Assembly: GCF_001598795.1 (NCBI RefSeq)
Contig: NZ_BCZP01000045.1
Span: 1-21,459, forward strand
Source: Delftia acidovorans NBRC 14950
Lineage (GTDB): Bacteria > Pseudomonadota > Gammaproteobacteria > Burkholderiales > Burkholderiaceae_C
Reading direction: 5' to 3'
Length of the DNA: 21,459 nt
Positions 1,999 through 21,459 of the stretch are shown here, piece by piece. Made by a program: the position numbers and the translations under genes. Each line of letters opens with the position of its first letter. Position 1 is the first letter of the stretch. Below the pieces are notes generated by a model, which did not search any database, was not told the origin of the DNA, and saw only the letters and a list, made by a program, of their open reading frames with translations.

Positions 1999-2139
1999 GG
2001 CTGAATTTGATACCGTATTTTTGCAAAGAATATGCGCCGTAAAGCTATGCAGCCTCCCTTTTCGCGTTCTCTTCGTGCCAATTGAGACCACAAGCGTCAT
2101 ATATGCTTGCGGTTTTTTGCGGTCTACACTTCGTTAGCT
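1999..2139 (+). other. attI-like region ending in the cassette-insertion core GTTAGCT (2133..2139)
   Basis: This is an AT-rich non-coding stretch between the leftward intI remnant and the rightward cassette, which is the canonical integron geometry. GTTAGCT matches GTTRRRY at 6/7 positions and is the perfect reverse complement of AGCTAAC at 2943..2949. A weak candidate rightward sigma70 promoter, TTGATA-N18-TATGCG, starts at 2007 (low confidence). Confidence 0.45.
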
Positions 2140-2994
2140 TTCACAATCAAGGAGAGTGTCATGCGAAAGAATTTTTTACTTATTTCCCTCATAGCCGTAG
2201 CACTCAGTGGCTGTTCCACATGGACTATTCCAGCCACTCCTGGAGATCCCAAGTCCGCACAAAGTTATGGATATAATCCGATTGACTCGCTACCAGTTAC
2301 GGTTTCTCCGGCAAACGCTACGCGAGAACAAAAACTTGAAGCCCTTCCTGACGAGACTATGCGGTTAGCTGTTGGTCAGCTCGATGGAAAGGCTGGAATT
2401 TCGTTTGGACCAGCTAAAGCCGGGGTGGCTGGAAATAGTTATGTTGTTATTCTTGATTACACGAAATTCACAACAAAATCATTTGGGGTAAAGAAAACTG
2501 CTGTAGTGGGTAGCGACAAAATTTCCGTTGCTTTAACTACAGTGCCCGATCCGGATGTTGTGGTGCCTGTTTACGTGGGTGTCGGGCTGCGACTCACTGC
2601 CAATATAACTGTCAAAGAAGGAAGTGTTGATCTTGGAAATTTGTTTGCATTGGGGGTGGCTGCCCAAGCAAAGCAGATATCCGGCACGCTGGTTATCCAA
2701 TCCCTTGGCCTGAGCGGAGAAGGGGTTTCTCCGTTGATTCCTATTCCGAGTGAGATAAATCCAACAACAATTCAAAATGCGCTCATGGCTATCGGCTCAA
2801 TCAAAGCCAAGATATACGACGGGAAGATCACCATAGTACCCCGCGTGGTCGGGGTCTATAACAATCTCGGTGGAGGCCAAGAAACGATAAACGGCTTTAT
2901 TTCCACAATCTTGGAGAAGCCTCTGACACTTGATGCGCAATGAGCTAACAAATCGTTCCAGCGGAACGCCTTCGGCGACCGCTGAACTCCAACG
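2134..2994 (+). mobile_element. Integron gene cassette (861 bp, one ORF plus attC), bounded by G|TT crossover points
   Basis: The 5' boundary lies inside GTTAGCT (2133..2139) and the 3' boundary inside GTTGAAT (2994..3000). The cassette holds a single ORF with its own SD. Composition drops sharply: 25/60 G+C in the first 60 nt of the ORF versus 42/60 in a phage sample at 3601..3660. Circularising 2134..2994 would rebuild an R' box (G+TTAGCT) perfectly complementary to R'' (AGCTAAC). Confidence 0.6.
2161..2943 (+). CDS. Orphan lipoprotein (260 aa), cassette-encoded, function unknown
   Basis: ATG 2161 lies 5 nt downstream of AAGGAGA (2149..2155). MRKNFLLISLIAVALSG/C has a basic n-region, a hydrophobic core and a lipobox LSGC with Cys18. 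Ser at +2 means no Asp inner-membrane retention signal. The mature part has no further Cys. The track ORF start at 2107 (TTG) is unlikely. I recognise no family. Confidence 0.85.
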   Translation: MRKNFLLISLIAVALSGCSTWTIPATPGDPKSAQSYGYNPIDSLPVTVSPANATREQKLEALPDETMRLAVGQLDGKAGISFGPAKAGVAGNSYVVILDYTKFTTKSFGVKKTAVVGSDKISVALTTVPDPDVVVPVYVGVGLRLTANITVKEGSVDLGNLFALGVAAQAKQISGTLVIQSLGLSGEGVSPLIPIPSEINPTTIQNALMAIGSIKAKIYDGKITIVPRVVGVYNNLGGGQETINGFISTILEKPLTLDAQ

Positions 2995-3000
2995 TTGAAT
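2943..3000 (+). other. attC recombination site (58 bp)
   Basis: Layout: R'' AGCTAAC (2943..2949, overlapping the last base of the TGA stop), spacer AAATC, then L'' GTTCCAGCGG (2955..2964). L'' pairs with L' CCGCTGAAC (2979..2987) over 9 bp with one bulged base (C2959 on the top strand, G on the bottom strand). The terminal stem-loop is CGCC-TTC-GGCG (2967..2977), followed by spacer TCCAAC and R' GTTGAAT (2994..3000), which fits GTTRRRY. The R''/R' AAC/GTT bases pair and the central spacers do not, as expected for attC. Confidence 0.65.
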
Positions 3001-3080: not shown

Positions 3081-3590
3081 TCAGCGTGAGACGTTCGGCC
3101 AAGCATCCCTCATCAGCGCGGCGTCAGCGGCGTGGCCATCAGCCGCTCGCGCGATGTCTGCACCGCGCTCTGCCAGGCGTCCACCGTGGTCTGCCAGCTC
3201 TTGGAGTACGGTTGTGCAGGTGCTGGCGTAATGAGCGAGGGCGGGCTGGGCAGCTCCAGCGATGCGCTCGGGGAGGCCGGCAAAGTCGCCCCGCATGCCT
3301 GCAGTAGCAGTGCGCAAATCGCGCAGGCTGCGGTCGAGATCCTGCTGAGCCGCGGCGTTGCGCTGGCCAGCGGCCTGGAAATTGGCGAGTGCATCGTTCA
3401 TTCCTTTCTGAAATCCGGCCATGTCGCGCACGGCCTGCTTTGTGCTAGCCAATTCGGTGCTGGTCTGTAGGTGGCGCAGCTGCTCCAGCTGCAGGCCGTA
3501 GCGCTGGCCCTGAGCCCACCAGGCACCGCCGGCACCAATCGCAAGCGACGCAGTGGCCGCAGCCAAATAAGTTGAGAGTGGGCTGATCAT
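3081..3590 (-). CDS. i-spanin (Rz-like), 169 aa
   Basis: ATG 3590 overlaps the endolysin stop (ATGA). It has an N-terminal TM helix (ISPLSTYLAAATASLAIGAGGAWWA) followed by a long Gln/Ala/Arg-rich coiled-coil-like region. It is the last gene of the lysis cassette. The track start at 3650 is an upstream extension into the endolysin. Confidence 0.75.
   Translation of the reverse strand: MISPLSTYLAAATASLAIGAGGAWWAQGQRYGLQLEQLRHLQTSTELASTKQAVRDMAGFQKGMNDALANFQAAGQRNAAAQQDLDRSLRDLRTATAGMRGDFAGLPERIAGAAQPALAHYASTCTTVLQELADHGGRLAERGADIARAADGHAADAALMRDAWPNVSR
3113..3394 (-). CDS. o-spanin (Rz1-like) lipoprotein fully embedded in the i-spanin gene in another frame
   Basis: The translation is ..RLSRISTAACAICALLLQA/CGATLPASPSASLELPSPPSLITPAPAQP.., with a lipobox LQAC followed by a short (~60 aa) Pro-rich mature peptide. 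It lies wholly inside 3081..3590 in a different frame, like lambda Rz/Rz1. The exact start codon is uncertain. Confidence 0.65.
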   Translation of the reverse strand: MHSPISRPLASATPRLSRISTAACAICALLLQACGATLPASPSASLELPSPPSLITPAPAQPYSKSWQTTVDAWQSAVQTSRERLMATPLTPR

Positions 3591-4198
3591 TGCGAAGCCC
3601 TCGCCAGCAAGCCCGGGCTGAAATGCCCATCCCTGCCCCACTGCGCGCACAGTTCGCGCGTGGCTTCGCGGCGATCAACAAGGCCCGGCAGGCGCGTCGG
3701 AACGCCGTTGACCGTCCCGTAGACCCATCGCGGCATCTGCTCGCATGCAGCATCCAGCTGCCCTGCGTTGGCCAGCCGCATGACCGTCGTGTCAGGTGCC
3801 AGCGCCGATGGCACGTTGTAGGCCACGTCGATAAAGCTGGCCTGCACCCAGACGTTGTAGCGGTCCCAGTGCCGCAGCGCGCGCCGCGCCAGGCGCTCGG
3901 CCTCGTGGTACTTGGGCCGCTCCAGGCGTTCGCAGTCCTCGGGCGTGTAGTAGCGCCCTGCCACCACCTCGGGACCCGTCACGCCCGCGCAGACGGTCAG
4001 CGGCTGCCCCTTGCCCACGCGGTCGATGTAGGGCGTGCCGATGTGCCGACCGCTGCTCTCATAATGCAGCCCGATCTCCCGGGCCAACTTCACTGCAGGG
4101 CTGGGTCCGGCGTCCTGGGTGGCAACATAGCCGCCGGCAGCGGTGACGGCCAAGCCCGCAGCAGTAGCCAGGAGTCGATTGCGTAAGGTCTCGTTCAT
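3587..4198 (-). CDS. Endolysin, GH24 (phage lysozyme) family with N-terminal SAR (signal-anchor-release) domain, 203 aa
   Basis: The N-terminus MNETLRNRLLATAAGLAVTAAGGYVA is a weakly hydrophobic Gly/Ala/Thr-rich TM helix typical of SAR endolysins. HYESSGRHIGTPYIDRVGKGQPLTVCAGVTG fits the Glu..Asp..Thr lysozyme catalytic pattern. It is ATGA-coupled at both ends (4198/4195 and 3590/3587). Confidence 0.85.
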   Translation of the reverse strand: MNETLRNRLLATAAGLAVTAAGGYVATQDAGPSPAVKLAREIGLHYESSGRHIGTPYIDRVGKGQPLTVCAGVTGPEVVAGRYYTPEDCERLERPKYHEAERLARRALRHWDRYNVWVQASFIDVAYNVPSALAPDTTVMRLANAGQLDAACEQMPRWVYGTVNGVPTRLPGLVDRREATRELCAQWGRDGHFSPGLLARASQ

Positions 4199-5725: not shown

Positions 5726-6963
5726 CAATGCACCCCCGCATAAAAGCATTCCCAGCGATTGACGCGATTGCAGGTAAAGATGAGGCTTACCATCCCGTTA
5801 GCGGGATACTGCGGAAACGGCAGCAGCGCCCCCGTTCCGTCAATTTGCAGTCCTACGTTTCCTGAGAACGTAATTGCTCGGATTGCACCTGCACTGATAA
5901 CGTGTAGCGTCACTTCATCACCATATTGACGGCCGGCAGGCAATATGAATTGGCATGTCGCGTTAATCGTCACGACATGCACACCACCCTGACCAGGATC
6001 AACGATGTAGGAAGGGGTGCTGGCAGGGACGTTTACAGTCACCTGCCGGCCCATGGCCGTCTTGCTGGTAATCACCCGATCCCAGGCACTCCAGGTCGTG
6101 TCCTCCAGCACACGTTGCCATGTGCTGCCCTGGATACGCGACACATAGTCCGGCGTTGTGGAGAGCACTTGGGTAGCCACCTGTTTGGCTCGACCTGTCG
6201 CCCCTGTGGTCTCCACAAGCCAGGATTGGCTCCCGTTGTTGTATTCCTCCGGCGGCCAGTCCGCACCACGCCCAGTGGTGGTGGTCATCAGGGCAAAACC
6301 GACCAGCAACTCGCCCATCAACTTGGACTTGCCCCAAGCCTCTGGCGCCTTCGCGATTACTTCGCTGACACGCGGCGCTTGGTTACCAGTTGCGCCTTGG
6401 GGCACTTCAATCGGCCCAGTAAAGACCCCCCCACCCCTAGGCATGAACGTTGCCGGCAAATCCCCAACGCCAGGCACCCACCTCAGGACATTGCCACCCC
6501 ACCAGAACCAACGGTTGTTGAGATTGGGATCGATGCCTACGTTGATATACATCGCCCCCAGCTTGATGGCCCCGCCCTGGTTGTCAGTGGTCGGCGGGAC
6601 TGTCTTGGGGCCGAGCATGTACTGGTCAACCGCCTGTGCGCTGGCGGCAGCCGATGCCGCAGCGCTTTGCGCCTGATTCTTGAAAGCCTCCGCCGATGAG
6701 GACGCAGCCTGCGCAATCGCTTTCGCAGCCTCGGCCGCTGCAGCGGAATTTGCCGCCTGATTGCGATAGCTCATTGCCGCATCGGCCTGCTCCCGAGCAA
6801 CGATGGCGCAGGTTCGGCAGGCCACAGCAATCTCCCGCATGCGCGACACAGCGGGCGGGACGCTTGTGGCGTAGCTGAATGCCTCCTGGTTGAAATTGGC
6901 GCTGCCGAGCGCGGGATACTGCGAGATGGGCAGCAGGTCTGGGATGTTGACGATGTCGGTCAT
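5725..6963 (-). CDS. Tail fibre / receptor-binding protein, 412 aa
   Basis: ATG 6963 overlaps the upstream TGA (ATGA). It has an N-terminal attachment region and an Ala/Gln/Ser-rich coiled segment (AANSAAAAEAAKAIAQAASSSAEAFKNQAQSAAASAAASAQAV). The motif PPTTDNQGGAIKLGAMYINV..NRWFWWGGNVLRW is typical of proteobacterial phage fibres. The C-terminal domain is distinct. Confidence 0.75.
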   Translation of the reverse strand: MTDIVNIPDLLPISQYPALGSANFNQEAFSYATSVPPAVSRMREIAVACRTCAIVAREQADAAMSYRNQAANSAAAAEAAKAIAQAASSSAEAFKNQAQSAAASAAASAQAVDQYMLGPKTVPPTTDNQGGAIKLGAMYINVGIDPNLNNRWFWWGGNVLRWVPGVGDLPATFMPRGGGVFTGPIEVPQGATGNQAPRVSEVIAKAPEAWGKSKLMGELLVGFALMTTTTGRGADWPPEEYNNGSQSWLVETTGATGRAKQVATQVLSTTPDYVSRIQGSTWQRVLEDTTWSAWDRVITSKTAMGRQVTVNVPASTPSYIVDPGQGGVHVVTINATCQFILPAGRQYGDEVTLHVISAGAIRAITFSGNVGLQIDGTGALLPFPQYPANGMVSLIFTCNRVNRWECFYAGVH

Positions 6964-7910: not shown

Positions 7911-10900
7911 GCGATTGCCTTCCCACGCATGGCGTTGCCGCCGTTTGTGACACGGTCGAACTGCTCACCCAGCTCGGGCAATGGCGCCGTGTTGCGCGCA
8001 GTGGCCTCTGCAGGAGCACGCAGGCCCGCTACCTCGCCACGCAGGGCGCTGACCTCGGCCAGCAGCGCGGCAATCAGCGCTGCGCTTTCGGAGCCCTGAC
8101 CGCCCCCGCGCATGGCCTGGCCGAGCTGCTGCTGGTTCCAGTAGCGGGCCGGCCCGGTAGCCTCGACCTCCCAGCCGCGCTCACCCACAACACGCAGGCC
8201 GCCCGCGTGCATACCACCGCTGGCGAATGCGGGGAGCTTGATGCCGGTGATTCGCTCGACTTCAGCCCAGTCCCGGGCATACAGCCCCGACAGCGCTTCC
8301 ATGTCGGACAGCGTGGCGCCAGCACTTTGCATGGCGCGCATGAGCCCGGCCAAGTCGCCCGTGCCGTCATAGGCGTGGTACTTGTCAAACAGACCATCGA
8401 GCTTGTTGACCGTGCCCGGCTCAACAACGGACTCATACCAGGTGCCGCCGGAACCATCGCTGCGAGGCCGCAGGTACTTGGAATCCACGGTGTCAGGCTG
8501 CCCGCCACCACCCGGCCCCCAGACGGCACCACCATCGTTGGCGCCAGCGCCGGGCTTGGTGCCAGGCTTGGTCGCACCGGCGTCCTTGCCCAAGGTGGCC
8601 AGCAGCTTCTCGAAGTAACCCTGCACCGTGCCGGTGAGCATGGTGGTGCCGTTGACCAGCTCGTCGGCGCGCTTGGCCAGGGCATCCAGGCCTTCAATCT
8701 GGGACTGCAGGGCCTTGAGGGACCGTTCCTCGATGTTCAGCTGCGATTCACCCAGATCGCCCAACTCCGCAAACTTGCCCGCCCACACCAGGGCATCACG
8801 GCGGCGCTCGAAGTCGGTGGCGTAGACGCCCCCGGTCAGGCCCGAGCGGGTGGCCTGGATGGCAGAGCCCAGATCGGCATAGTCAGAGACCTTGCGGCCC
8901 GCGCGCACGCCCTGCAAGGCCTCCTCGATGTAGACCATGCCCCGCGCAGCCATCCACTGCGTGGTGCTGTCCACGGTGCCATAGAGATCCGTCGCAGCAC
9001 CCTTCAACTGCCCCACCGCCGCCGTGATGGCTGAGATGGATTCCTCCACGCTGCTCACGCGCTGCTGCAGCAGTTCGCGGTCACGGTTCACGGCACGGCT
9101 GAACAGGTCGTAGGCAGCCGATTGCGCTTCCTTGGCCGCCACCTGGGCAGCGCGCTCGTCCTCGATGGCCCAGATGCGTTCCTGCAGGGCGCGGTTGCTG
9201 GGATCCAGTGCAGCCAGTTCCAGGCGGCGCAGTTCCGCCGTATTGCCCTGCATCTCCAGCAGCTTGCGCTCCAGGTCGGTGCGCTGGTCCACGCGGGCGA
9301 TCTCTTCGCGCAGCGCCTGGTTGTAGTCCCAGGCGGCGCGCTCGGCTTCGCTCATGCCCTCGGTGGCCAGCTTGCGCAGTGCCTCGCGGTACTTGTCGGT
9401 CTGGCCCGTGGCGCGCAGGTACTCGGCTTCCAGCTGCCTGCGGTCGTTCTTGAGCGTGTCCAGCACCTGGCCGGCAGCATCGGCCACGGCGCCGAATTCC
9501 TGAGCCAGCGGAATGAGCTTGGCCAGCAGCTCCACGTCGCCGGCCGCCATGGCGTCCTCGATGAGCTTGCGGAACTTGGCCTTGGCGTCCTGGCCCATTC
9601 GGGGATCAATGTCGATCTTGAGGTCGGCCAGCGCCTTGTCCACCGCCTTGGCCGCGTTCTCGATGCGCTCCCGCTCGCTGTAGAAGCTGGTGTAGAACGC
9701 ATCCATACCGGTGATCAGGTCCTGGATGCCGCCGGCGCTCTTGATGAGCTTGGCAATGGCCTCGTCGCCCAACTTGCCGAAGTTGGTGATGTTGCGGGTC
9801 CAGCCCTCGATGGCGGCGCCCGTCAGCTCCACGGTCTGCAGGGCCGCGTTGAAGCTCTCCAGCGTGATCTCCTCACCCATGTCATCGAAGACATTGCGCA
9901 TCCAGCTGGGGATATCAGCCTTTTTCAGCTGATCGATCAGCGATCCGCCCATGTCGGCAATGAACTGGGCATAGGCCTTGGCGGGGTCCGTGCCAAGCGC
10001 GCCATCGCGCTTGGTGTAGCTGCTCAGGACCTCGCCGGTCACCTTGTCGATCAGCTTGAAGTAGCCGTAGGAATCCTCGTCGCCGTACTTCGGATTGGAG
10101 GCGAAGCCCGCGACGATATCGATCTGCTTGGCACTGTCACCGGCATAGCGCGCGAGACGCTTATAGACATCGGACAACGAATCAACGGTGGTGCCCAGTT
10201 GCTTCTCAAGATCGGCGTTGTGGCGCTTGGTCAGATCGTCATACCAGTCACCGCCAGCACGATCGAACAGCATCTCGGCGGCCTTGTCATTGCCCGCGCC
10301 CGTGGTGCTGTAGGCCGCGCCAACGTGGTTGGCACCGCGCGAACCAAACAGGCCGCCCTTGAGCAGCGAGAAAATGGCGATGGCTCCCGCAATCCAGGGC
10401 ATTGCAGCCCCCAGGCCGCTCATCAAGGAGCCAAAGCTGCTGCCGACACCGGCCCAGCTTCCATTGCCCGCGATCAGGGCGCCAAGGGCATCGCCGCCAG
10501 CCAGGCCCACGGCATTGGCACCAGCAAGGCTGGCAGCCGACGCACCAGGCATAAAGCCCCACATTGCCTGGGCACCTGCACCCAGCGTGCCAAGGTTGTT
10601 CAGCATGCCCATGCCAGCGCCGCCACTCTGGCCAGCCGCAGCAGGTGCGCCAAACAAACTGCCCAGGGCACCGCCAGCAATCTGGACCGTGGCCTGAATC
10701 AGCGGTTTGAAAATGAGCGTGCGCGCCAGATTCTTGAGGTACTGACCGAACGAGAGACCGCCCTGCATCAGCTGGTCGGCCAGGCTCTGGCCGATCTGGT
10801 CCACACCCTTCTGCCATTCCGAGGTGCTGGCCTTGGCAGCTTCTGCCGAGGCTTCGCGTGAGGCCTTCACAGAGGTCAGGCCCAGGCGCTCGCGCAGCAG

Positions 10901-15347: not shown

Positions 15348-15707
15348 TCAGGCCGCGACCGTGCCGATGACGCCAGGCAGGCAGACGGCGCCCTGCGTGG
15401 CCGCGCTGTCGGCCGCCTCGAAGGCGAACGCCGCCCCCGTCACGTCGCCGGCCGTGGCCGCGCCGCCCACTGCGAATGCGCCGGTTTCGACATCCCAGCG
15501 CAGCGGCTGGCCCTGTGTCCACGCGGTGCCTGCCGCCTTGGGCAGGACAAAGACGCCCACGCGCTCGGCGTTGTAGGGCTCGCCGACCTGGGCCGGACCA
15601 TTTGCCACGGCAAGGATGGCGCCGATGGCCACGGGCTGGCCTGCAGCCACTGCGGCGGCAGCTGCCAGGACCTCGATGACGTGGCCGCGCTGTTGGTAGT
15701 TTTTCAT
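15348..15707 (-). CDS. DUF2190-family head decoration/cement protein, 119 aa
   Basis: MKNYQQRGHVIEV..AAGQPVAIGAILAVA....GEPYNAERVGVFVLPKAAGTAWTQGQPLRWD matches the characteristic DUF2190 pattern (MKNY.Q.G....., GVF.LPKA.G). GGAG lies upstream and the gene is adjacent to the capsid gene. Confidence 0.85.
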   Translation of the reverse strand: MKNYQQRGHVIEVLAAAAAVAAGQPVAIGAILAVANGPAQVGEPYNAERVGVFVLPKAAGTAWTQGQPLRWDVETGAFAVGGAATAGDVTGAAFAFEAADSAATQGAVCLPGVIGTVAA

Positions 15708-15748
15708 GGGTTGAACTCCTGAAAGCGTGTGAGTGGATGGCGGCGCGC

Positions 15749-17830
15749 TCAGGCGCCGTTGCTCTTGGCCAGGCCGTGCCAGTCCAGGCTCTTGGCCGCA
15801 AAATCCAGGCTGGCGCGCAGCTTCACGCCGTCCACGTCCTCGCTGGCAAAGGTCTCGGTGCGCAGGCCTTCGTACCCGTCCACGTAAGCGAACTCGACGG
15901 TGTCGATCTGGCCGGCGCGGGCTGCCAGGTAGAACGCGGTGGTGGACACGGCATCCAGCAGCGGCTCCACGATGGGCTCCAGCGCCGTGCGGCCACCCGT
16001 GCGGAACTCGTTGATGTCGCCGGACTTGGTGGGCTGGTAGTTCGGGCTGGTGAACTGGTAGGCCAGGGTTTCCAGGTCGGAGGGGACCAGCAGGAAGGCA
16101 GGCGCGATGTTCAGCGTCTCATCGTCACGGCCCTTTTGCTTGCGCATCAGCGTGCGCAGGCTGGACAGCGCTTCCAGCGAGAACTTGGACCCTGCGCCGG
16201 TCAGCAGGTTGTGATGCTCGGCATCAAACAGAGGCTCGCCATCCGACATGGCCGGGTTCTTCAGGATCTGGTCATAGACCAAGCGGTTTTCGAGGCGGCG
16301 GGCCGCGTCGGCAAAGCGGGTGCCGGTGCGCGTCAGTGCGTCCAGATCGTCATTGATGATCATCTGGCGGGTGATGGCCAGCGAGCGACCGAAGGTAAAG
16401 GCGCGGTAGCCCGTGGCATCCTCGGACAGGTTGCCGTAGGTGTACTCGCCATGCTCGTTGAGCTTCTTGAGTTCGACATCGCCGCCCACGCCAATGGCCT
16501 GGCGGATGCGGAAGTCCGGCAGGTTGGCGGCACGGCGCGCCCACAGCTGGTAGGTGCTGGGTGCTTGGTCATAGGCCGCACGCAGCACGCGCTGCCCCAC
16601 GCTGCCCAGCAGCGCGGGGAAGTCGCCCGTACCCAGCATGCCGGAGCGCAGGCGCAGCGCCACGCCAACAATCTCGGCACGGCTCATGCCACGCGTCCGC
16701 TGGCCCAGGCCTTCCACCACCTCGCGCGCCATCTCCACCAAGGCCATGGCGCGGTACTGGCGGCCGTTGTCGTCCAGCTGTGCGCCTGGATTCAGACGGT
16801 TCATGAGCGCGTTTTCGATGCCGCGCATGCGGGTTTCGTGCTCATCGCCCACGGTGCGGATGGAGGTCGTGGGGCCGGTGGCTTGCTCCTGGCTGCGCTG
16901 GTCCAGCGCCGTCAGCACGGCAGCGCGAGCCTCGTCCATGGTGGACTGGTTGCGCAGCAGATCGGCCTGCAGATCGGCCAGGTTGTGGCGCTGGCACAGC
17001 GCAACAATGTCGGCGGCGCGCTGACCATCGAACGCACCGGCAGGCGCGGGCAGCGGTGCACCCTCAGTCTGGCGGTTCTGCGGAACCTGCGACACGTTGG
17101 CGGGCGCGGTGCCCGGGGTGGTGTTGGCGGTCTGGCCGCCTTCACCGGCTTGGTTTGCTTGGGGCATACGTTGGTGCTCCTGGGTGGTAGGTTGGGCGGC
17201 TGCCCGTTGGAAGAACTCGCACGGCATGCCGCCCTGGGGCGCTGCACCGGACGGGGCCTGGGAAGTGGGTGCGCTGCGCGTGCCGGCGTTTGGGTCGGCG
17301 GGCACAGTGACGAAAGAGATTTCCTGCGGGGTCCAGGCGACTGCGCGGTAGAGATCGACGTTGATGCCGTCCGTGCGGTCCTGGGCGCGGGTGATTTCGT
17401 AGCGCTGGACGCTGTAGCCGAAGCTGATGGCGCGGATGATCCCGGCGCGGATGTCGGCCACGATGCCGGCCAGCTCGGGGCGCTGGCTCAGCCGGATCAC
17501 AGCCCGGCCTTCGCCACCTTCGATCCAGCCCCGTACAGCGATTCCAAGGATGGCGGCCACGCCGCCGTAGCTGCGGTGGCCGTCCAGCACCTGGACCGTG
17601 CCGGCATCGAAGCGGGCCATGTCCACGGCTTCGGGGGTGATCTGCAGGTCCTCGTCGTAGGGACGCTCGTTCCAATAGTCGTAGCGGCGCACCATGGCGC
17701 CCGTGGTCCAGACCACCTCGACCGTGCCGTCGGTCTCGTTGTAGGTGTCAGGGACCAGGCTTGCGGCGCGCGTCTGCACCGGCAAATCGTGGATCTGGGG
17801 CGCGGAAGATTGGGCGTTGGCTTGTGGCAT
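15749..17830 (-). CDS. Prohead protease / scaffold-like linker / major capsid protein fusion, 693 aa
   Basis: The N-terminal ~190 aa is HK97-type prohead serine protease-like (..VQVLDGHRSYGGVAAILG.., ..IRAISFGYS.., ..QEISFVTVPADPNA). The middle ~130 aa is a Pro/Gln/Ala-rich low-complexity, helical region. The C-terminal ~330 aa is capsid-like (..FRIRQAIGVGGDVELKKLNEHGEYTYG.., ..LNIAPAFLLVPSDLE.., ..FYLAARAGQIDTVEFAYVDG..). It lies between the portal and decoration genes. Confidence 0.85.
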   Translation of the reverse strand: MPQANAQSSAPQIHDLPVQTRAASLVPDTYNETDGTVEVVWTTGAMVRRYDYWNERPYDEDLQITPEAVDMARFDAGTVQVLDGHRSYGGVAAILGIAVRGWIEGGEGRAVIRLSQRPELAGIVADIRAGIIRAISFGYSVQRYEITRAQDRTDGINVDLYRAVAWTPQEISFVTVPADPNAGTRSAPTSQAPSGAAPQGGMPCEFFQRAAAQPTTQEHQRMPQANQAGEGGQTANTTPGTAPANVSQVPQNRQTEGAPLPAPAGAFDGQRAADIVALCQRHNLADLQADLLRNQSTMDEARAAVLTALDQRSQEQATGPTTSIRTVGDEHETRMRGIENALMNRLNPGAQLDDNGRQYRAMALVEMAREVVEGLGQRTRGMSRAEIVGVALRLRSGMLGTGDFPALLGSVGQRVLRAAYDQAPSTYQLWARRAANLPDFRIRQAIGVGGDVELKKLNEHGEYTYGNLSEDATGYRAFTFGRSLAITRQMIINDDLDALTRTGTRFADAARRLENRLVYDQILKNPAMSDGEPLFDAEHHNLLTGAGSKFSLEALSSLRTLMRKQKGRDDETLNIAPAFLLVPSDLETLAYQFTSPNYQPTKSGDINEFRTGGRTALEPIVEPLLDAVSTTAFYLAARAGQIDTVEFAYVDGYEGLRTETFASEDVDGVKLRASLDFAAKSLDWHGLAKSNGA
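17165..17181 (-). promoter_or_regulatory. Candidate internal translation start (AGGAG-N9-ATG, in frame, Met222) inside the protease-capsid fusion
   Basis: The reverse strand reads CCCAGGAGCACCAACGTATGCCCCAAGCAAAC. AGGAG is at 17181..17177 and ATG at 17167..17165, which is 663 nt (221 codons) downstream of ATG 17830. The product would begin MPQANQAG.., echoing the full-length N-terminus MPQANAQS... Confidence 0.4.
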
Positions 17831-17851
17831 GGCGCTCAGTTTTCCGGTTTG

Positions 17852-17886
17852 ACTGTCTCAAATCCCGGAAAACTGAGACGATTTCA
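17852..17886 (-). repeat. Copy A of a 35-nt stop-codon-anchored dyad element (TGAAATCGTCTCAGTTTTCCGGGATTTGAGACAGT)
   Basis: It begins with the portal TGA stop. It contains the dyad GTCTCA-N13-TGAGAC. It is 31/35 identical to copy B (19641..19675). The distance from the T of TGA through the G of the next ATG (17828) is 59 nt, the same as in copy B. Confidence 0.7.
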
Positions 17887-19386
17887 CTTCTGCCCCTGCC
17901 CCTCCATCTGGGCCACCAGGTCGATGGGGTTCTGCGCACCCCACAGCGCGGCCAGCAGCGGCAGGATGCCGCCATCCTGCAGCCGCATCAGGTCGGCCTG
18001 CAGCTCGCTGAAAACGGCCTCTGGGTCATAGCCCCGGCGCCGGATGACTTCGCTGATGCTCTGCATGCCGCCCTTGACGGCGCTCAGGTCGCTGGCCACG
18101 TCCTGCACGGGGTTCGGGCTGGCCCAGCGGGGCGTGCTCCAGTCCGGCGCCTGCACGTTTGCCGGCACCGTGGCCACCAGATCCACGGCCGCCAGGAACC
18201 ACCGCGCAATGGGCGCGCACAGGCGCGGCACGGTGATGCGCCACTGCTCGGATTCGACCTCGGCCCGGAACTGGTTCATGGACATGCGTGAGGTTGAGAA
18301 ATTGACCTCGGTCAGGTCGCCGGTCATCAGCTCGTAGGGGCAGCGGTAGCCTGCGGCCACCTCCTTCCACCCTCCCTTCATGTAGTCACCAAAGCCCGGG
18401 ACGGCCTTCGGCTCGATGAAGGTGGGATTGGTCATGCCTGGCGGCAGGCCCACGATGCCGCCGCCAGCGAGGTCGCCCAGGTCCATCAGGCCGGGCTTTT
18501 GCCCCCCGGCCTCCTCGGGCAGCGGCGGCGGCATGCCTCCGGCCCCTTCCATCTCGGCCAGCACCCCCATGCGCGATTCCAGCTGCTTGCGCTGCAGCTC
18601 GGAGTCACCATAGGTGTGCAGGTCGCGCACCTTGGCGATGATGGGCGCCAGGCGCGTGATGCCGTCCTGCTGGCCGGCGCGCTCGGGATCGAAGAAGTGG
18701 ATGATTTCATCGGCCGGCACACGCTGACTGGTGCCGCTGCGGCCCAGGGTCCACATGCCGGCATCACCGGGGTGGCGGTCGAACAGGTAGTAGGCCAGGC
18801 GCTGGCCGCGCTTGTCGTACTCGATGCCCCGGATGATCTCGCGCCCGCCGGCCAGCACGCCGTTGCGCTCCACGTCCAAAAAGTCGATCTCCAACAGCTG
18901 CAGCTTGAGCGGCACCGTGGAGCCCATGCGCTGGATGTGCTTGCGGATGAGCACGGCGCCGTCAACGTCGCGCGTGCGCTCGGCTTTGTATTGCAGGCCG
19001 TAGAAGTCCAGCAGACCGTCATAGTCGGCATGGGGCACCCATTCGCGCCAGCGCTTGGCCAGGCCATCGTCGGCCCACACGGGCACGATGCCCTGGCCCA
19101 CGCGCATGGCGAGCACGGCATTGACGGCGCGCACGATGTTCGGCACGTTCTGCGCGAGTGAGCGCGCACGCATGCGCAGCTCGCGCGCATCGGCGGCGTG
19201 GTCGGCAGTGGGGCTGGCCCCCGAGCGCTTGACGCGCCAGCCATCGGCGCGGCTGGCGCCCTCGTAGGCGCGCACCAGCATTTCCCGGGCGACCTGGCGG
19301 CGCACGCCCTGCGCGGGCGAGAAATAGCCGACAACACGGTCAACCAGCGTGGGGGAGGCCCTGCGGGCTACGGTACCGCGCTGCAT
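17884..19386 (-). CDS. Portal protein, lambda (gpB) family, ~500 aa
   Basis: It has the size and position (directly after gpW) of a lambda-type portal. ATG 19386 lies 2 nt after the gpW TGA (TGATCATG). The track begins at TTG 19392. The composition is protein-like throughout. Confidence 0.85.
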   Translation of the reverse strand: MQRGTVARRASPTLVDRVVGYFSPAQGVRRQVAREMLVRAYEGASRADGWRVKRSGASPTADHAADARELRMRARSLAQNVPNIVRAVNAVLAMRVGQGIVPVWADDGLAKRWREWVPHADYDGLLDFYGLQYKAERTRDVDGAVLIRKHIQRMGSTVPLKLQLLEIDFLDVERNGVLAGGREIIRGIEYDKRGQRLAYYLFDRHPGDAGMWTLGRSGTSQRVPADEIIHFFDPERAGQQDGITRLAPIIAKVRDLHTYGDSELQRKQLESRMGVLAEMEGAGGMPPPLPEEAGGQKPGLMDLGDLAGGGIVGLPPGMTNPTFIEPKAVPGFGDYMKGGWKEVAAGYRCPYELMTGDLTEVNFSTSRMSMNQFRAEVESEQWRITVPRLCAPIARWFLAAVDLVATVPANVQAPDWSTPRWASPNPVQDVASDLSAVKGGMQSISEVIRRRGYDPEAVFSELQADLMRLQDGGILPLLAALWGAQNPIDLVAQMEGQGQK

Positions 19387-19388
19387 GA

Positions 19389-19619
19389 TCAACGGTCCCG
19401 CAGGCCGGCGAAGCGAAAGCGCGCCACCAGGGCGCGTGGCTGGCCGGTGCCGGCCACGGCCGAGATCTGCGTGTGCAGATCCCGGCGTGCGCCCATCATC
19501 TCGTCCAGGCTTCGATATGTGACCGAGGCGCCATCCTCGGTCGTGATGGTGCGCTCACCACTGTGGATGGCGGCATTGAGGCGCGCGAGGCGCATCTGGA
19601 GGTCTTGGAGCGTGCTCAT
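19389..19619 (-). CDS. gpW-family head-tail joining protein, 76 aa
   Basis: MSTLQDLQMRLARLNAAIHSGERTITTEDGASVTYRSLDEMMGARRDLHTQI parallels lambda gpW (..[46 protein letters not shown]..). I prefer ATG 19619 over GTG 19628 because it reproduces the 59-nt stop-to-ATG spacing seen at repeat copy A. Confidence 0.8.
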   Translation of the reverse strand: MSTLQDLQMRLARLNAAIHSGERTITTEDGASVTYRSLDEMMGARRDLHTQISAVAGTGQPRALVARFRFAGLRDR

Positions 19620-19640
19620 ATGCCGCACGCTACCGGGGCA

Positions 19641-19675
19641 ACTGTCTCATTTCCCGGAAAAGTGAGACGGTTTCA
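19641..19675 (-). repeat. Copy B of the 35-nt stop-codon-anchored dyad element (TGAAACCGTCTCACTTTTCCGGGAAATGAGACAGT)
   Basis: It begins with the TGA stop of the Mor-like gene. The dyad arms GTCTCA/TGAGAC and the central TTTTCCGGGA are identical to copy A. The four differences all lie outside the arms. A CCGG follows at the same offset in both copies. Confidence 0.7.
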
Positions 19676-20026
19676 GCCGGGCTGCTTCAGGTGCCGGTAC
19701 ACGGTGGCACGGCTGATGCCCAACGTGCGCGCCACGGCCGTGGCATTGCGCCCATTCCACAGCCGCAGCACCTGCCGACGCTCCTCGGCCTTGTCCACCG
19801 AGGACCTGGCAGGGATGTAGGCATCCTGGCCGGCGAACTCCCGGCGCAGCTGAAGCTGGACACGCTCCATCGCGGCAGGGCTGCCGCGCAGCTCGGGCAG
19901 CAGCTCCACAAGATAGTCAAACATGCGATCCACCAGATCGGGCGCGAAATCGGCCGCTGGCATGGCGGAACTCTTGGCCGCATCGGGGGCCATGTGGGGT
20001 GCTGGGGCGTTGATCTTTGGGGTCAT
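19673..20026 (-). CDS. Mor-family transcriptional activator-like HTH protein, 117 aa
   Basis: ATG 20026 lies 4 nt after the terminase TAG. ..LVELLPELRGSPAAMERVQLQLRREFAGQDAYIPARSSVDKAEERRQVLRLWNGRNATAVARTLGISRATVYRHLKQ aligns by eye with Mu Mor (..LRGELSRLG..ICKHLGGGQVYIPRGQALDSLIRDLRIWNDFNGRNVSELTTRYGVTFNTVYKAIRR). The track ORF 19673..20317 is an upstream shadow extension into the terminase gene. Confidence 0.75.
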   Translation of the reverse strand: MTPKINAPAPHMAPDAAKSSAMPAADFAPDLVDRMFDYLVELLPELRGSPAAMERVQLQLRREFAGQDAYIPARSSVDKAEERRQVLRLWNGRNATAVARTLGISRATVYRHLKQPG

Positions 20027-20030
20027 GGGG

Positions 20031-21459
20031 CTACCAGGAACGGGAGAAACCGCCGTTGCGGCGAACGGGTGCCGCACGGCGTGGCGCGGGGGCCGACGCA
20101 CGGGGCGCGGTGGTGGCGGAAACGGGTGGCGCGACCGACGTGGGCGCAGCCGTGGGAGCCGACGGCGCCACGCTGGCGGGCGCTTCGGGTGGGCTGAAGA
20201 GGTCACGCGCAGGCTGCACCATCTGCTCGACCTGCGACCAGCGCGCATCGGTGTACTTGTGCAGGCCCTGGGCCATGGCCGCGTGGATGGCGTAGTTTCG
20301 GCAGTCCAAGTCCTCATTGCGCTGGCGGCGCTTGACCCAGCGGTAGGCCTCGCGGCCCTGGACCTTGGCCAGGATGCGCTGCTCTGCGGTCAACTGCTCG
20401 AAGAACTCGCGCGGCAGATCCTCGCTGAAGTGCACGCATCCCGGGCCAGCGTCGGTGATCGCCAGTTGGCCCAGCAGCAGATCCTTGGCGTTGTCCACGC
20501 CCACCAGCCAGAGCTTGATGCCCTGCTTGACCTTCTGCCCGCGCCAGTCCAGGTCCTGCATGCTGGCCGGCCCCACGATAGGCCGGTTGTCGTTGTTGTC
20601 GCCCTTGATGGCGCGCAGGTTGGGCAGCATGTGCTGGTGCGTGCGGACGTAGTTGTAGACCGCCTGCGTCTGGTCGGACGAGTCGATGCTGATGGCGCTC
20701 AGGCCCAGGCTGCCGCCGTGCCATGCCTGCCGGTAGCGGCGCTGCAGGTAGGCCGTCACAGGTGCCCAGTCGCCCTCGCTGGATGGGTTGCCCTCGATGA
20801 TGTGGCGGTCCACGATCCAGCTTTCCATGCCGCGGCCCCATGCCCAGACGTTGATCTGCCACCAGGTGCGCTGCACGTCCACGCCGGCCGCCAGCACCAG
20901 GCCACCCACGGGCACCGTGCCCAGGGCGTAGGGCTCGGCGCGGGCCTGCAGCACATGGTCGTCGGTGCCCTCCCCCTTCAGTTCCCAGGCCTGGCCCAGC
21001 GTCTCGTTGGTGAACGAGGTCATGGGGCCTGCATCGCCCTCCTGCAGCGCACGGTGGGCCTTCTCGAACTCGTCCACGATGGACGCCCAAGTGCGCTGCG
21101 GGCTGTACGCGGCCCAGATGTGCACGCCCAGCGTGCGTGGGGGCCTGCAGGGCGTGCCATCGGCAGTGCGCCAGATCCGGTCGGCGCCGAAGCGGCGGCC
21201 GGAACGGCGGCACACCCAGGCGCCCGTCAGCGGCCAGCCACCGGGCAGGTACTCGGCCTGGCTGATGGACTCCCGGCAGTGGGGGCACATGTGGCGCACG
21301 GTCTCGGGCTTGCCGGCCTCCCATTTGAAGCCGTGCATGGCCTCCTTGCCGCCCCAGGTCAGCGGGTGCTCGGCCTCGCAGCGCGGGCACTCGATCAGGT
21401 AGTCGACCTCGTCCTCGGAGTCCTCGCAGGCGCGGCTGACGTGGCACAGGCCCTTGATT
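20031..21459 (-). CDS. terL: Terminase large subunit, GpA (lambda A) family, C-terminal ~475 codons (5' end beyond the right edge)
   Basis: The frame is open from the right edge (..IKGLCHVSRACEDSEDEVDYLIECPRCEAEHPLTWGGKEAMHGFKWEAGKPETVRHMCPHCRES..), giving paired CxxC motifs. The nuclease-domain pattern is AAGVDVQRTWWQINVWAWG..SIDSSDQTQAVYNYV... The C-terminal tail is Pro/Ala-rich. M at 21338 in the track is internal. Confidence 0.9.
   Translation of the reverse strand, partial: IKGLCHVSRACEDSEDEVDYLIECPRCEAEHPLTWGGKEAMHGFKWEAGKPETVRHMCPHCRESISQAEYLPGGWPLTGAWVCRRSGRRFGADRIWRTADGTPCRPPRTLGVHIWAAYSPQRTWASIVDEFEKAHRALQEGDAGPMTSFTNETLGQAWELKGEGTDDHVLQARAEPYALGTVPVGGLVLAAGVDVQRTWWQINVWAWGRGMESWIVDRHIIEGNPSSEGDWAPVTAYLQRRYRQAWHGGSLGLSAISIDSSDQTQAVYNYVRTHQHMLPNLRAIKGDNNDNRPIVGPASMQDLDWRGQKVKQGIKLWLVGVDNAKDLLLGQLAITDAGPGCVHFSEDLPREFFEQLTAEQRILAKVQGREAYRWVKRRQRNEDLDCRNYAIHAAMAQGLHKYTDARWSQVEQMVQPARDLFSPPEAPASVAPSAPTAAPTSVAPPVSATTAPRASAPAPRRAAPVRRNGGFSRSW

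Follow-up and report, generated by a model that had tools for sequence, protein, structure and literature searches.

What does a 25-bp inverted repeat do at two gene junctions in the head-gene region of a prophage? The question is raised by a 21,459-nt stretch of Delftia acidovorans NBRC 14950 DNA (contig NZ_BCZP01000045.1; the whole stretch is called the window below). It derives from a Delftia prophage and carries the dyad GTCTCA-N13-TGAGAC between the gene of a Mor-like protein and a gpW-like gene and again between the portal gene and the gene of a prohead protease-major capsid fusion. A sequence-only reading of the window had proposed a dedicated regulatory module, either an operator for a dimeric helix-turn-helix (HTH) protein, with the adjacent Mor-like protein as the obvious candidate, or an RNA hairpin for processing or translational control. 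The results described here favor the operator, and indicate that the element is probably an activator-dependent sigma70 promoter lacking a -35 hexamer and producing leaderless mRNA.

Two copies of the element in the window

The pattern AAAYC-GTCTCA-N13-TGAGAC was found on the minus strand with the dyads at 19644-19668 (copy B, module P1) and 17855-17879 (copy A, module P2). Both strings first reported for the element were recovered exactly, copy B from 19675 to 19617 and copy A from 17886 to 17828, and either copy spans 59 nt from the first T of a TGA to the G of an ATG. The first 35 nt are identical at 31 positions with none of the four differences within the arms, and a CCGG occurs at equal offset in both copies, immediately 5' of the -10-like hexamer described below. 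No other gap in the window has the element, in agreement with the sequence-only reading. A search with the core GTCTCANTTTTCCGGGANNTGAGAC (22 specified bases, up to three mismatches) returned the two known sites only, and 100 dinucleotide shuffles of the window gave no match to the core. Exactly two modules are present within the 20 kb surrounding the activator gene. A third copy was found neither in the window nor in the 10 kb upstream from the same prophage, and a search of both for degenerate modules (up to two arm mismatches, spacers of 12-16) revealed none with promoter features.

Each copy had also been described as starting on the stop codon of the upstream gene. This holds in the window, where the TGA at 19675-19673 is the stop of the Mor-like open reading frame (ORF) and that at 17886-17884 the stop of the portal gene, but not outside this clade: in other lineages the position of the upstream stop ranges between 59 nt before the left arm and a point within the element itself, 19 nt past the left-arm start. 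The AAA tract behind the 'TGAAA' is conserved across lineages in its own right. Since the position of the upstream stop is not conserved in other lineages, the combination of TGA stop and 59-nt spacing as a termination-reinitiation or bypass signal was rejected.

Occurrence in other genomes

An exact-pattern scan of IMG/VR returned 40 loci, and 19 of 19 close relatives of the Mor-like protein have the element or a variant at the same place. A relaxed pattern with 18 specified bases was run against one genome for each of 185,579 species (596 Gb), which yielded 19 loci in total with one or two per genome. Approximately 12 belong to Acidovorax, Delftia, Comamonas, Caenimonas, Rhodoferax, Rubrivivax, Aquabacterium and Piscinibacter, frequently in pairs with a spacing of ∼1.8 kb; the others are in unrelated phyla, are without the flanking features and are as numerous as expected by chance. 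Real copies are restricted to Comamonadaceae and related Burkholderiales, where they are located in prophage head modules or satellite-like islands. Position and orientation are constant in more than 100 viral contigs, the element being intergenic and co-oriented with the downstream gene in every informative contig. Site 1 follows the Mor-like gene, at times with one extra gene intervening, and precedes the gpW-like gene, while site 2 follows the portal gene and precedes a protease-capsid gene of ∼690 aa. The Mor-like proteins are 41-57% identical between lineages with a nearly identical 25-bp core, and an unchanged core accompanies flanking proteins of about 45-55% identity.

A short palindromic intergenic sequence occurring twice could be a generic host repeat of the REP/BIME type or a functionless chance duplication. 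However, the count expected from shuffles is zero, the 19 matches in 596 Gb are not the many scattered copies of a host repeat, the real matches lie only in prophage head modules or satellite-like islands, and the core is identical despite the divergence of the flanking proteins. The species-genome scan together with the shuffle test refutes the host-repeat reading, and this explanation in either form is exceedingly improbable. The proposal of a dedicated regulatory module is supported.

Anatomy of the probable promoter and predicted transcription start

Conserved features around the dyad were analyzed in two sets of modules, the first comprised of 56 unique modules picked by the dyad alone and displayed as an ungapped logo, and the second of 129 unique modules from a looser, arm-agnostic search in which the A and T of the hexamer were not required. 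The logo revealed, shortly before the distal arm, an AAA tract (positions -4 to -2), then an A right behind the right arm, and a tAnnnT hexamer at positions 37-42 with A38 present in 54 of 56 modules and T42 likewise in 54 of 56. The most important positions of the sigma70 -10 element are A-11 and T-7, to which A38 and T42 correspond. In the larger set the hexamer A is present in 111 modules and the hexamer T in 111. The -10-like hexamer lies exactly 11 nt past the proximal arm, and an ATG follows 23-25 nt past the right arm (6-8 nt past the hexamer) in 72 of the 129 modules. A Shine-Dalgarno-like motif was found at none of these 72 ATG-adjacent sites versus 11 of 34 sites with a leader of 16-50 nt, among them a clear AGGAG. 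A -10 hexamer 6-8 nt 5' of the start codon and the missing Shine-Dalgarno sequence are features by which leaderless genes are recognized. The gpW-like ATG behind P1 also has no Shine-Dalgarno sequence; the other genes of the window have one.

Module P1 (19617..19673, minus strand), ahead of the gpW-like gene, is comprised of an AAA tract (19673-19671), the left arm GTCTCA (19668-19663), the conserved centre CTTTTCCGGGAAA (19662-19650), the right arm TGAGAC (19649-19644), an 11-nt spacer, the -10-like hexamer TAGCGT (19632-19627) and a 7-nt discriminator, with the predicted +1 at the gpW-like ATG (19619-19617). Module P2 (17828..17884, minus strand), ahead of the protease-capsid gene, has the same arrangement: AAA tract (17884-17882), left arm (17879-17874), centre GTTTTCCGGGATT (17873-17861), right arm (17860-17855), 11-nt spacer, -10-like hexamer AAAACT (17843-17838), 7-nt discriminator and predicted +1 at the protease-capsid ATG (17830-17828). 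A consensus scan of 17600-20200 found no two-hexamer sigma70 promoter, and on inspection no alignment of a -35 hexamer in the centre or right arm yields a spacer of 16-18 bp. A terminator scan of the same region found nothing at either element; the one terminator-like site (19420-19436) is within gpW and unrelated.

Since the conserved -10-like hexamer is located 11 nt after the dyad and the ATG 6-8 nt later, the simplest reading is that transcription most likely starts at the A of the ATG. Numbered from this A as +1, the hexamer spans -13 to -8, the two arms span -49 to -44 and -30 to -25, and the AAA tract spans -54 to -52, with the dyad centre at approximately -37 (24 bp upstream of the first -10 base and 37 bp upstream of the ATG). 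The sequence-only reading had argued from geometry against a simple Mor-type promoter, since with an activator site centred near -42 transcription would not begin before the ATG. The calculation is correct for a centre at the Mu-like position, but it does not exclude a promoter since the family data show the -10-like hexamer and the ATG at fixed distances. The geometry differs from that of the Mu middle promoter Pm, yet on the conserved sequence features the element is read as a promoter.

The Mor-like protein

The 117-aa protein encoded upstream of P1 scored 29.8 bits against Pfam Mor (cut-off 24.9), and most of 97 homologues carry PF08765. The single window sequence matched Mu Mor over both domains with E=0.002, whereas a profile of 40 homologues matched Mor (1RR7/9L0Y) at positions 25-112 with E=1.7e-5 and Mu C (9L0X) with E=0.016. 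The protein has the two-domain architecture of Mor, consisting of a dimerisation domain, a linker with a conserved Y-I-P motif and a C-terminal HTH. An AlphaFold model had a mean predicted local distance difference test score of 76, with values >90 in the HTH. The best Foldseek matches were 1RR7, 9L0Y and 9L0X, but with TM-scores of just 0.33-0.40, and identity to Mor is ∼24%. Near-identical Delftia proteins are named 'Mor transcription activator family protein' by NCBI. These comparisons assign the window protein to the Mor/C family.

The HTH also scored against resolvase HTH_7 and against the Tn3 and gamma-delta resolvase chains, and the recognition helix is near-identical to that of serine recombinases of the resolvase/Hin type (I-[SA]-R-[AS]-T-V-Y-[RK]). 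The position of the HTH gene next to terL, together with the finding that satellites often copy the packaging sites of their helper, would suit a role of the dyads as cos/pac accessory or recombination sites. However, two co-oriented copies 1.8 kb apart in a head operon would be destructive if cut or recombined, and the protein differs from serine recombinases in having no catalytic domain, a Mor-type N-terminal dimerisation half and another genomic role. Packaging or another DNA transaction also leaves the nAnnnT hexamer, the ATG spacing, the co-orientation and the Shine-Dalgarno leaders unexplained, and is considered very unlikely.

Covariation of the recognition helix with the arms

The relation between protein and element was examined in loci picked by the protein and not by the DNA. 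Among 80 such loci, ∼30 were without GTCTCA arms and contained the same module with other arms. The recognition helix of the window protein is ISRATVYRHLKQPG, and helices were compared with arms for 93 distinct Mor-like proteins. Helices of the form [S/G]-R-[A/S]-x-V-Y-R accompany GTCTCA wherever a site was detectable, H-R-x-T accompanies GT(C/A)GCA (7/7), S-R-R-T accompanies GTG(C/A)CA (5/5) and G-R-T-T accompanies GTT(C/T)CA (5/5). Single cases were found for S-R-V-T with GTTTCA, G-R-S-T...V-Y-L with GTCCAA, and S-R-M-T with GTATCA (locus L059, with a 15-nt spacer). Arm positions 3 and 4 alone vary, the initial G-T and final C-A being essentially constant. The pattern suggests a code with two pairings, residue 1 of the helix to base 4 of the arm and residue 3 of the helix to base 3.

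The helix changes between otherwise similar proteins. Outside the HTH, the protein of L100 (SRRT, GTGACA) has 89-90% identity to those of L097 and L098 (HRAT, GTCGCA), that of L138 (SRVT, GTTTCA) is 92-95% identical to those of L099 and L104 (SRRT, GTGCCA), and that of L020 (SRRT) is 92% identical to those of L028 and L039 (SRST, GTCTCA). The H, SRRT and GRTT classes each occur in two or three unrelated backgrounds. The helix switches are not a by-product of overall divergence. In 14 loci with arms other than GTCTCA, sites 1 and 2 of one phage share the arms. The test was also conducted in reverse: contigs chosen by GTCGCA arms encoded IHRxTVYR in six of six neighboring proteins, and those chosen by GTGCCA arms encoded ISRRTVYR in six of seven. 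The variable helix residue 1 (S105 in the window protein), which is linked to specificity, was aligned by the profile opposite S110 of Mu C, a residue among those reported to contact DNA in the C-TAC cryo-electron microscopy (cryo-EM) structure (bioRxiv 10.1101/2025.05.02.651988). Both the linker motif E-F-x-G-x-x-x-Y-I of the protein and the TTTCCGGGAAA-like centre of the element are conserved across arm classes, and from analogy to the structures of Mor and C it may be speculated that the linker contacts the centre.

The covariation of arm positions 3 and 4 with the recognition helix, and the concerted change of both sites of a genome, support the view of the arms as an operator for a multimeric HTH protein, and support the adjacent Mor-like protein as its ligand. 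The adjacent Mor-family protein very probably binds the element.

RNA structure at and near the element

The other proposal was that the dyad hairpin, together with a second hairpin before the AUG, is a processing, stability or translational-control signal in a polycistronic late transcript in which the Mor-like protein is not involved. Symmetric arm changes would preserve a stem as well as an operator, so that symmetry alone does not decide between the two; the observed changes keep the 6-bp stem, in one case with a pair compatible with G-U (GTTTCA/TGGAAC). At leaderless-type sites a second hairpin, whose stems clearly covary, ends at the ATG, and copy A folds strongly. Other results are not those expected of an RNA element. 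The variation is confined to arm positions 3 and 4 with positions 1, 2, 5 and 6 almost invariant, unlike a purely structural stem, and the two hairpins of one genome share their sequence and track the protein helix, neither of which structure requires. Non-pairing hybrid arms are present, namely GTCTCA/TGATAC (L057, L058), GTGACA/TGGCAC (L100) and GTAGCA/TGCGAC (L132). The minimum-free-energy fold of copy A pairs otherwise than the dyad, while copy B folds no better than shuffles (z = -1.76). No match was found in Rfam at gathering thresholds, there is no U-tract behind the dyads, and no terminator-like site coincides with the elements. An RNA role of the dyad, the second option of the sequence-only reading, is accordingly judged improbable, and the operator reading is retained.

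The strong fold of copy A involves a 13-nt inverted copy, CCGGAAAACTGAG (17835..17847, minus strand), which is the inverse of the left arm plus centre CTCAGTTTTCCGG (17877-17865) and overlaps the -10-like hexamer. The fold with this inverted copy has -28.5 kcal/mol and z = -5.55, and in read-through RNA the hairpin would stop 4 nt short of the AUG. Leaderless-type sites, mostly those at site 2, have such a second hairpin or a palindrome in the interval from the proximal arm to the ATG. At least 15 different GC-rich stems of 5-8 bp were found there, those of other lineages being unrelated to the one in the window, all centred on the hexamer and ending 0-2 nt before the ATG. The mean z of this region is -1.61 at leaderless-type sites versus 0.02 at leader sites. 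Since the second hairpin is upstream of the predicted start, it would exist in read-through RNA only. It may stabilize or process the gpW-portal transcript, or silence the capsid ORF, which is without a Shine-Dalgarno sequence, on read-through RNA.

Comparison with characterized activators

In Mu Pm the element is centred at -43.5 and has a length of 16 bp, with two 5-bp repeats around a 6-bp spacer rich in G/C. Both Pm and the late promoters of Mu combine a -10 hexamer with the lack of a -35 and depend on Mor or C bound to a dyad; in Pm the dyad replaces the -35, a proximal UP-like subsite is located upstream, and the host sigma70 polymerase is used (PMC4390567). In recent cryo-EM work Mor and C are reported to bind as tetramers over ∼26 bp (C: bioRxiv 10.1101/2025.05.02.651988), a footprint for C similar in length to the 25-bp element described here. 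The resemblance to Pm and Mor extends to the activator family (N-terminal dimerisation domain, linker and C-terminal HTH), the -10 without a -35, the dyad in place of the -35, the A/T-rich, UP-like patch just upstream, and the predicted use of host sigma70 polymerase. In contrast to Pm, the arms are 6 bp and are separated by a spacer of 13-16 bp comprised of a T-tract, CCGG and an A-tract with a TTTTCCGGGAAA-like centre, 25 bp in all for the 13-bp form. The dyad is 11 bp from the -10 with a centre at approximately -37, whereas a Mu-like -43.5 would set +1 inside the ORF, and the transcripts predicted here are leaderless. The module shares with Mu-type promoters the -10 without a -35 and a dyad site, with perfect 6-bp inverted arms in both copies and in relatives; a centre at -43.5 and a 16-bp element with 5-bp repeats were not found. 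Since position and half-site architecture differ, the module is taken as a variation on the Mu-type promoters and not as one of them.

The promoters of the Mu late genes (Plys, PI, PP and Pmom) and C provide a further parallel, in that one small Mor/C protein fires morphogenesis genes from several promoters without a -35. They differ in that C is located upstream of the -35 position, in the site sequence and half-site spacing, and in the leaders of the Mu late genes; only two promoters are found here in ∼30 kb. The phages also differ, the Delftia prophage being of a lambda-like siphovirus type (gpA, gpW and lambda-type portal) and not transposable, with the activator gene between terL and gpW.

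An activator site over the -35 region is also a feature of the lambda CII promoters (PRE, PI and PaQ), where the -35 is poor and the repeats lie on either side of it, such that activator and sigma share the DNA. CII is a tetramer on the direct repeats TTGC-N6-TTGC, serves lysogeny promoters and not head genes, and is unrelated to the Mor-like protein.

Satellite-like islands

The module also precedes AlpA-family genes in loci L060 (4326-4700, Acidovorax bellezanensis), L071 (100-450), L019 (minus strand, ∼8228-8252), L004 (494-518) and L073 (971-995). These copies have GTCTCA arms and the 11-nt gap, with the A/T signature of the hexamer in four of the five loci and TGCAAT in L073. They are followed by a leader, with an AGGAG Shine-Dalgarno sequence in L060 and L071. 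Downstream in L019, L060 and L071 are a small ORF and a PriCT_2/Toprim primase of ∼960-990 aa, with DUF927 also in L060. No Mor-like gene was found in the 6-10 kb around the satellite modules, and no satellite with another arm class was found among the viral contigs, where the numbers are small. The islands look like satellites of the P4 or phage-inducible chromosomal island type that would use the late promoter of a helper for sensing its induction. The same logic is known from P2 and P4, where a dyad activator site for Ogr or Delta defines a few late promoters and the satellite P4 carries the promoter type of its helper, as the alpA-primase islands in L004, L019, L060, L071 and L073 appear to do. 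Ogr is a zinc-finger protein, and its site is TGT-N12-ACA centred near -55.

Proposed control of the head genes

In the proposed pathway the activator, encoded at the end of the terS-terL operon, would bind both 6-bp arms (GTCTCA/TGAGAC) with the C-terminal HTH, either as a dimer or as a tetramer like Mu Mor and C. The T-tract/CCGG/A-tract centre between the arms would occupy the place of the missing -35. The bound activator would recruit host sigma70 RNA polymerase to the weak -10 (TAGCGT or AAAACT) 11 bp downstream of the proximal arm, and transcription would start 7-8 nt past the -10 at the A of the ATG, such that the P1 (gpW-portal) and P2 (capsid-to-tail) transcripts would both be leaderless. 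The arrangement would constitute a feed-forward switch, in which an early or middle transcript extends through the terminase gene into that of the activator, which then turns on the genes for head and tail. The P2 transcript would encode capsid, decoration, connector and tail proteins and onwards, a second boost before the abundant, highest-copy proteins. Binding, activation rather than repression, the identity of the sigma factor and the exact start point are all inferred from sequence. A wider model adds that the activator fills the entire -35 region (centre at approximately -37) and replaces the contact of sigma region 4 with DNA, that head mRNAs are obligately leaderless, that the hairpin at the ATG restricts translation of the capsid ORF, lacking a Shine-Dalgarno sequence, to the activator-dependent transcript, that a code of two residues and two base pairs provides at least six orthogonal pairs, and that satellites eavesdrop; that all of these hold jointly is possible but doubtful.

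The same covariation would be expected if the Mor-like protein bound the dyads as a repressor or roadblock, shutting off or attenuating read-through transcription of the head genes or repressing a constitutive promoter. A site overlapping the -35 region is typical for repressors, and the genes on either side are co-oriented, so that read-through is possible. However, with no -35 and weak -10 hexamers there is no strong promoter to repress, and all characterized Mor/C proteins activate this kind of promoter (PMC4390567; bioRxiv 10.1101/2025.05.02.651988). Further, an ATG at the predicted start without a Shine-Dalgarno sequence in 72 sites is sensible only if the promoters supply a translated mRNA, and a module ahead of the alpA-primase operon of the satellite-like islands suits an inducing signal. 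Repression is unlikely on these results, and activation remains the preferred reading.

Several findings weigh against activation from a leaderless promoter. The dyad centre in every studied Mor/C promoter is at -43.5, and a protein centred at approximately -37 would cover the whole -35 region. The arm spacer ranges from 13 to 16 bp among lineages (16 in L130 and L148; 15 in L154 and L059; 14 in L096-L103, L107, L110 and L126), a large range for a rigid dimer; as the distance from the proximal arm to the hexamer stays at 11 bp, a flexible or bent complex is implied. The -10 hexamers of site 2 are poor, with only A-11 and T-7 kept, and at many site-2 copies A38 and T42 could be the closing pair of the covarying hairpin, and this is where the -10 assignment at site 2 is weakest. 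The ambiguity of symmetric arm changes, which would also keep an RNA stem, belongs here as well. Two loci are partial exceptions to the helix-arm code: L020 (SRRT), perhaps a recombinant or an assembly chimera, has GTGCCA at site 1 (577-601) and GTCTCA at site 2 (2405-2429), while L171 (GRTT) has the hybrid GTTCCA/TGGCAC at site 1 (4011-4035) and GTGCCA at site 2 (5844-5868).

If true, the activation reading would mean that Mor/C control of late genes is not confined to transposable phages of the Mu type but also operates in a large group of lambda-like Burkholderiales prophages that is uncultured. The promoter type, a wide dyad over the -35 region with leaderless head-gene transcripts, would be one not described before; a literature search on the motif, on Mor-like control in Delftia prophages and on leaderless late genes found nothing relevant. 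The recognition code could supply orthogonal activator/promoter pairs for Betaproteobacteria, and the sequence of the module would help to annotate late promoters, and satellites that sense a helper, in these genomes. A question raised is how leaderless translation and the upstream hairpin set the ratio of portal to capsid expression.

Genes of the window and prophage setting

The gene order around the elements, all on the minus strand, begins with the 3' part of the large terminase gene of the gpA type (20031..21459; Pfam GpA_nuclease, 346.9 bits). The full-length terminase gene is present in loci L158 and L159, and the activator gene is its last operon partner. The Mor/C-family activator gene (19673..20026) starts 5 nt after the TerL stop, and its most plausible start, 20026, agrees with the gene caller in the same prophage. 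The first gene downstream of P1 is the gpW-like head-completion gene (19389..19619, 76 aa), the conserved N-terminus of which starts at the ATG 19619-19617 in all relatives, again in agreement with the gene caller in the same prophage; the protein has no Pfam match. The lambda-family portal gene (17884..19392; Phage_portal_2, 298 bits) lies between P1 and P2, with the start placed by gene callers at the ATG at 19386. The first gene of P2 encodes the prohead protease-major capsid fusion of 693 aa (15749..17830; Phage_capsid_4, 172.9 bits, and Peptidase_S78, 21 bits). Pfam supports the gene labels for the Mor-like, portal and capsid-fusion proteins given by the sequence-only reading. The 10 kb upstream in the same prophage contain a cII-like (Phage_CP76) gene, a DUF1376 gene, a probable small terminase gene and terL, co-oriented and leading directly into the activator gene.

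A megablast search of GenBank phages with 15700-21459 returned no match, and tblastn detected no homologue of the activator in 50,697 GenBank phage records. The closest cultured relative of the portal is that of Stenotrophomonas phage S1 (45% identity). The phage group is known from prophages and metagenomes only.

A phage lysozyme gene (3587-4198, minus strand; Phage_lysozyme, 58 bits) is located downstream of the tail genes without a module of its own, from which it follows that the lysis genes would need read-through from P2 or an unrecognized promoter. The GC content at 2001-3000 is 0.47 compared to 0.61-0.70 in the rest of the window. A 278-aa ORF without a Pfam match at 2107-2943 is on the plus strand, opposite in orientation to the structural genes, and could represent a moron or a cargo gene at the end of the prophage.

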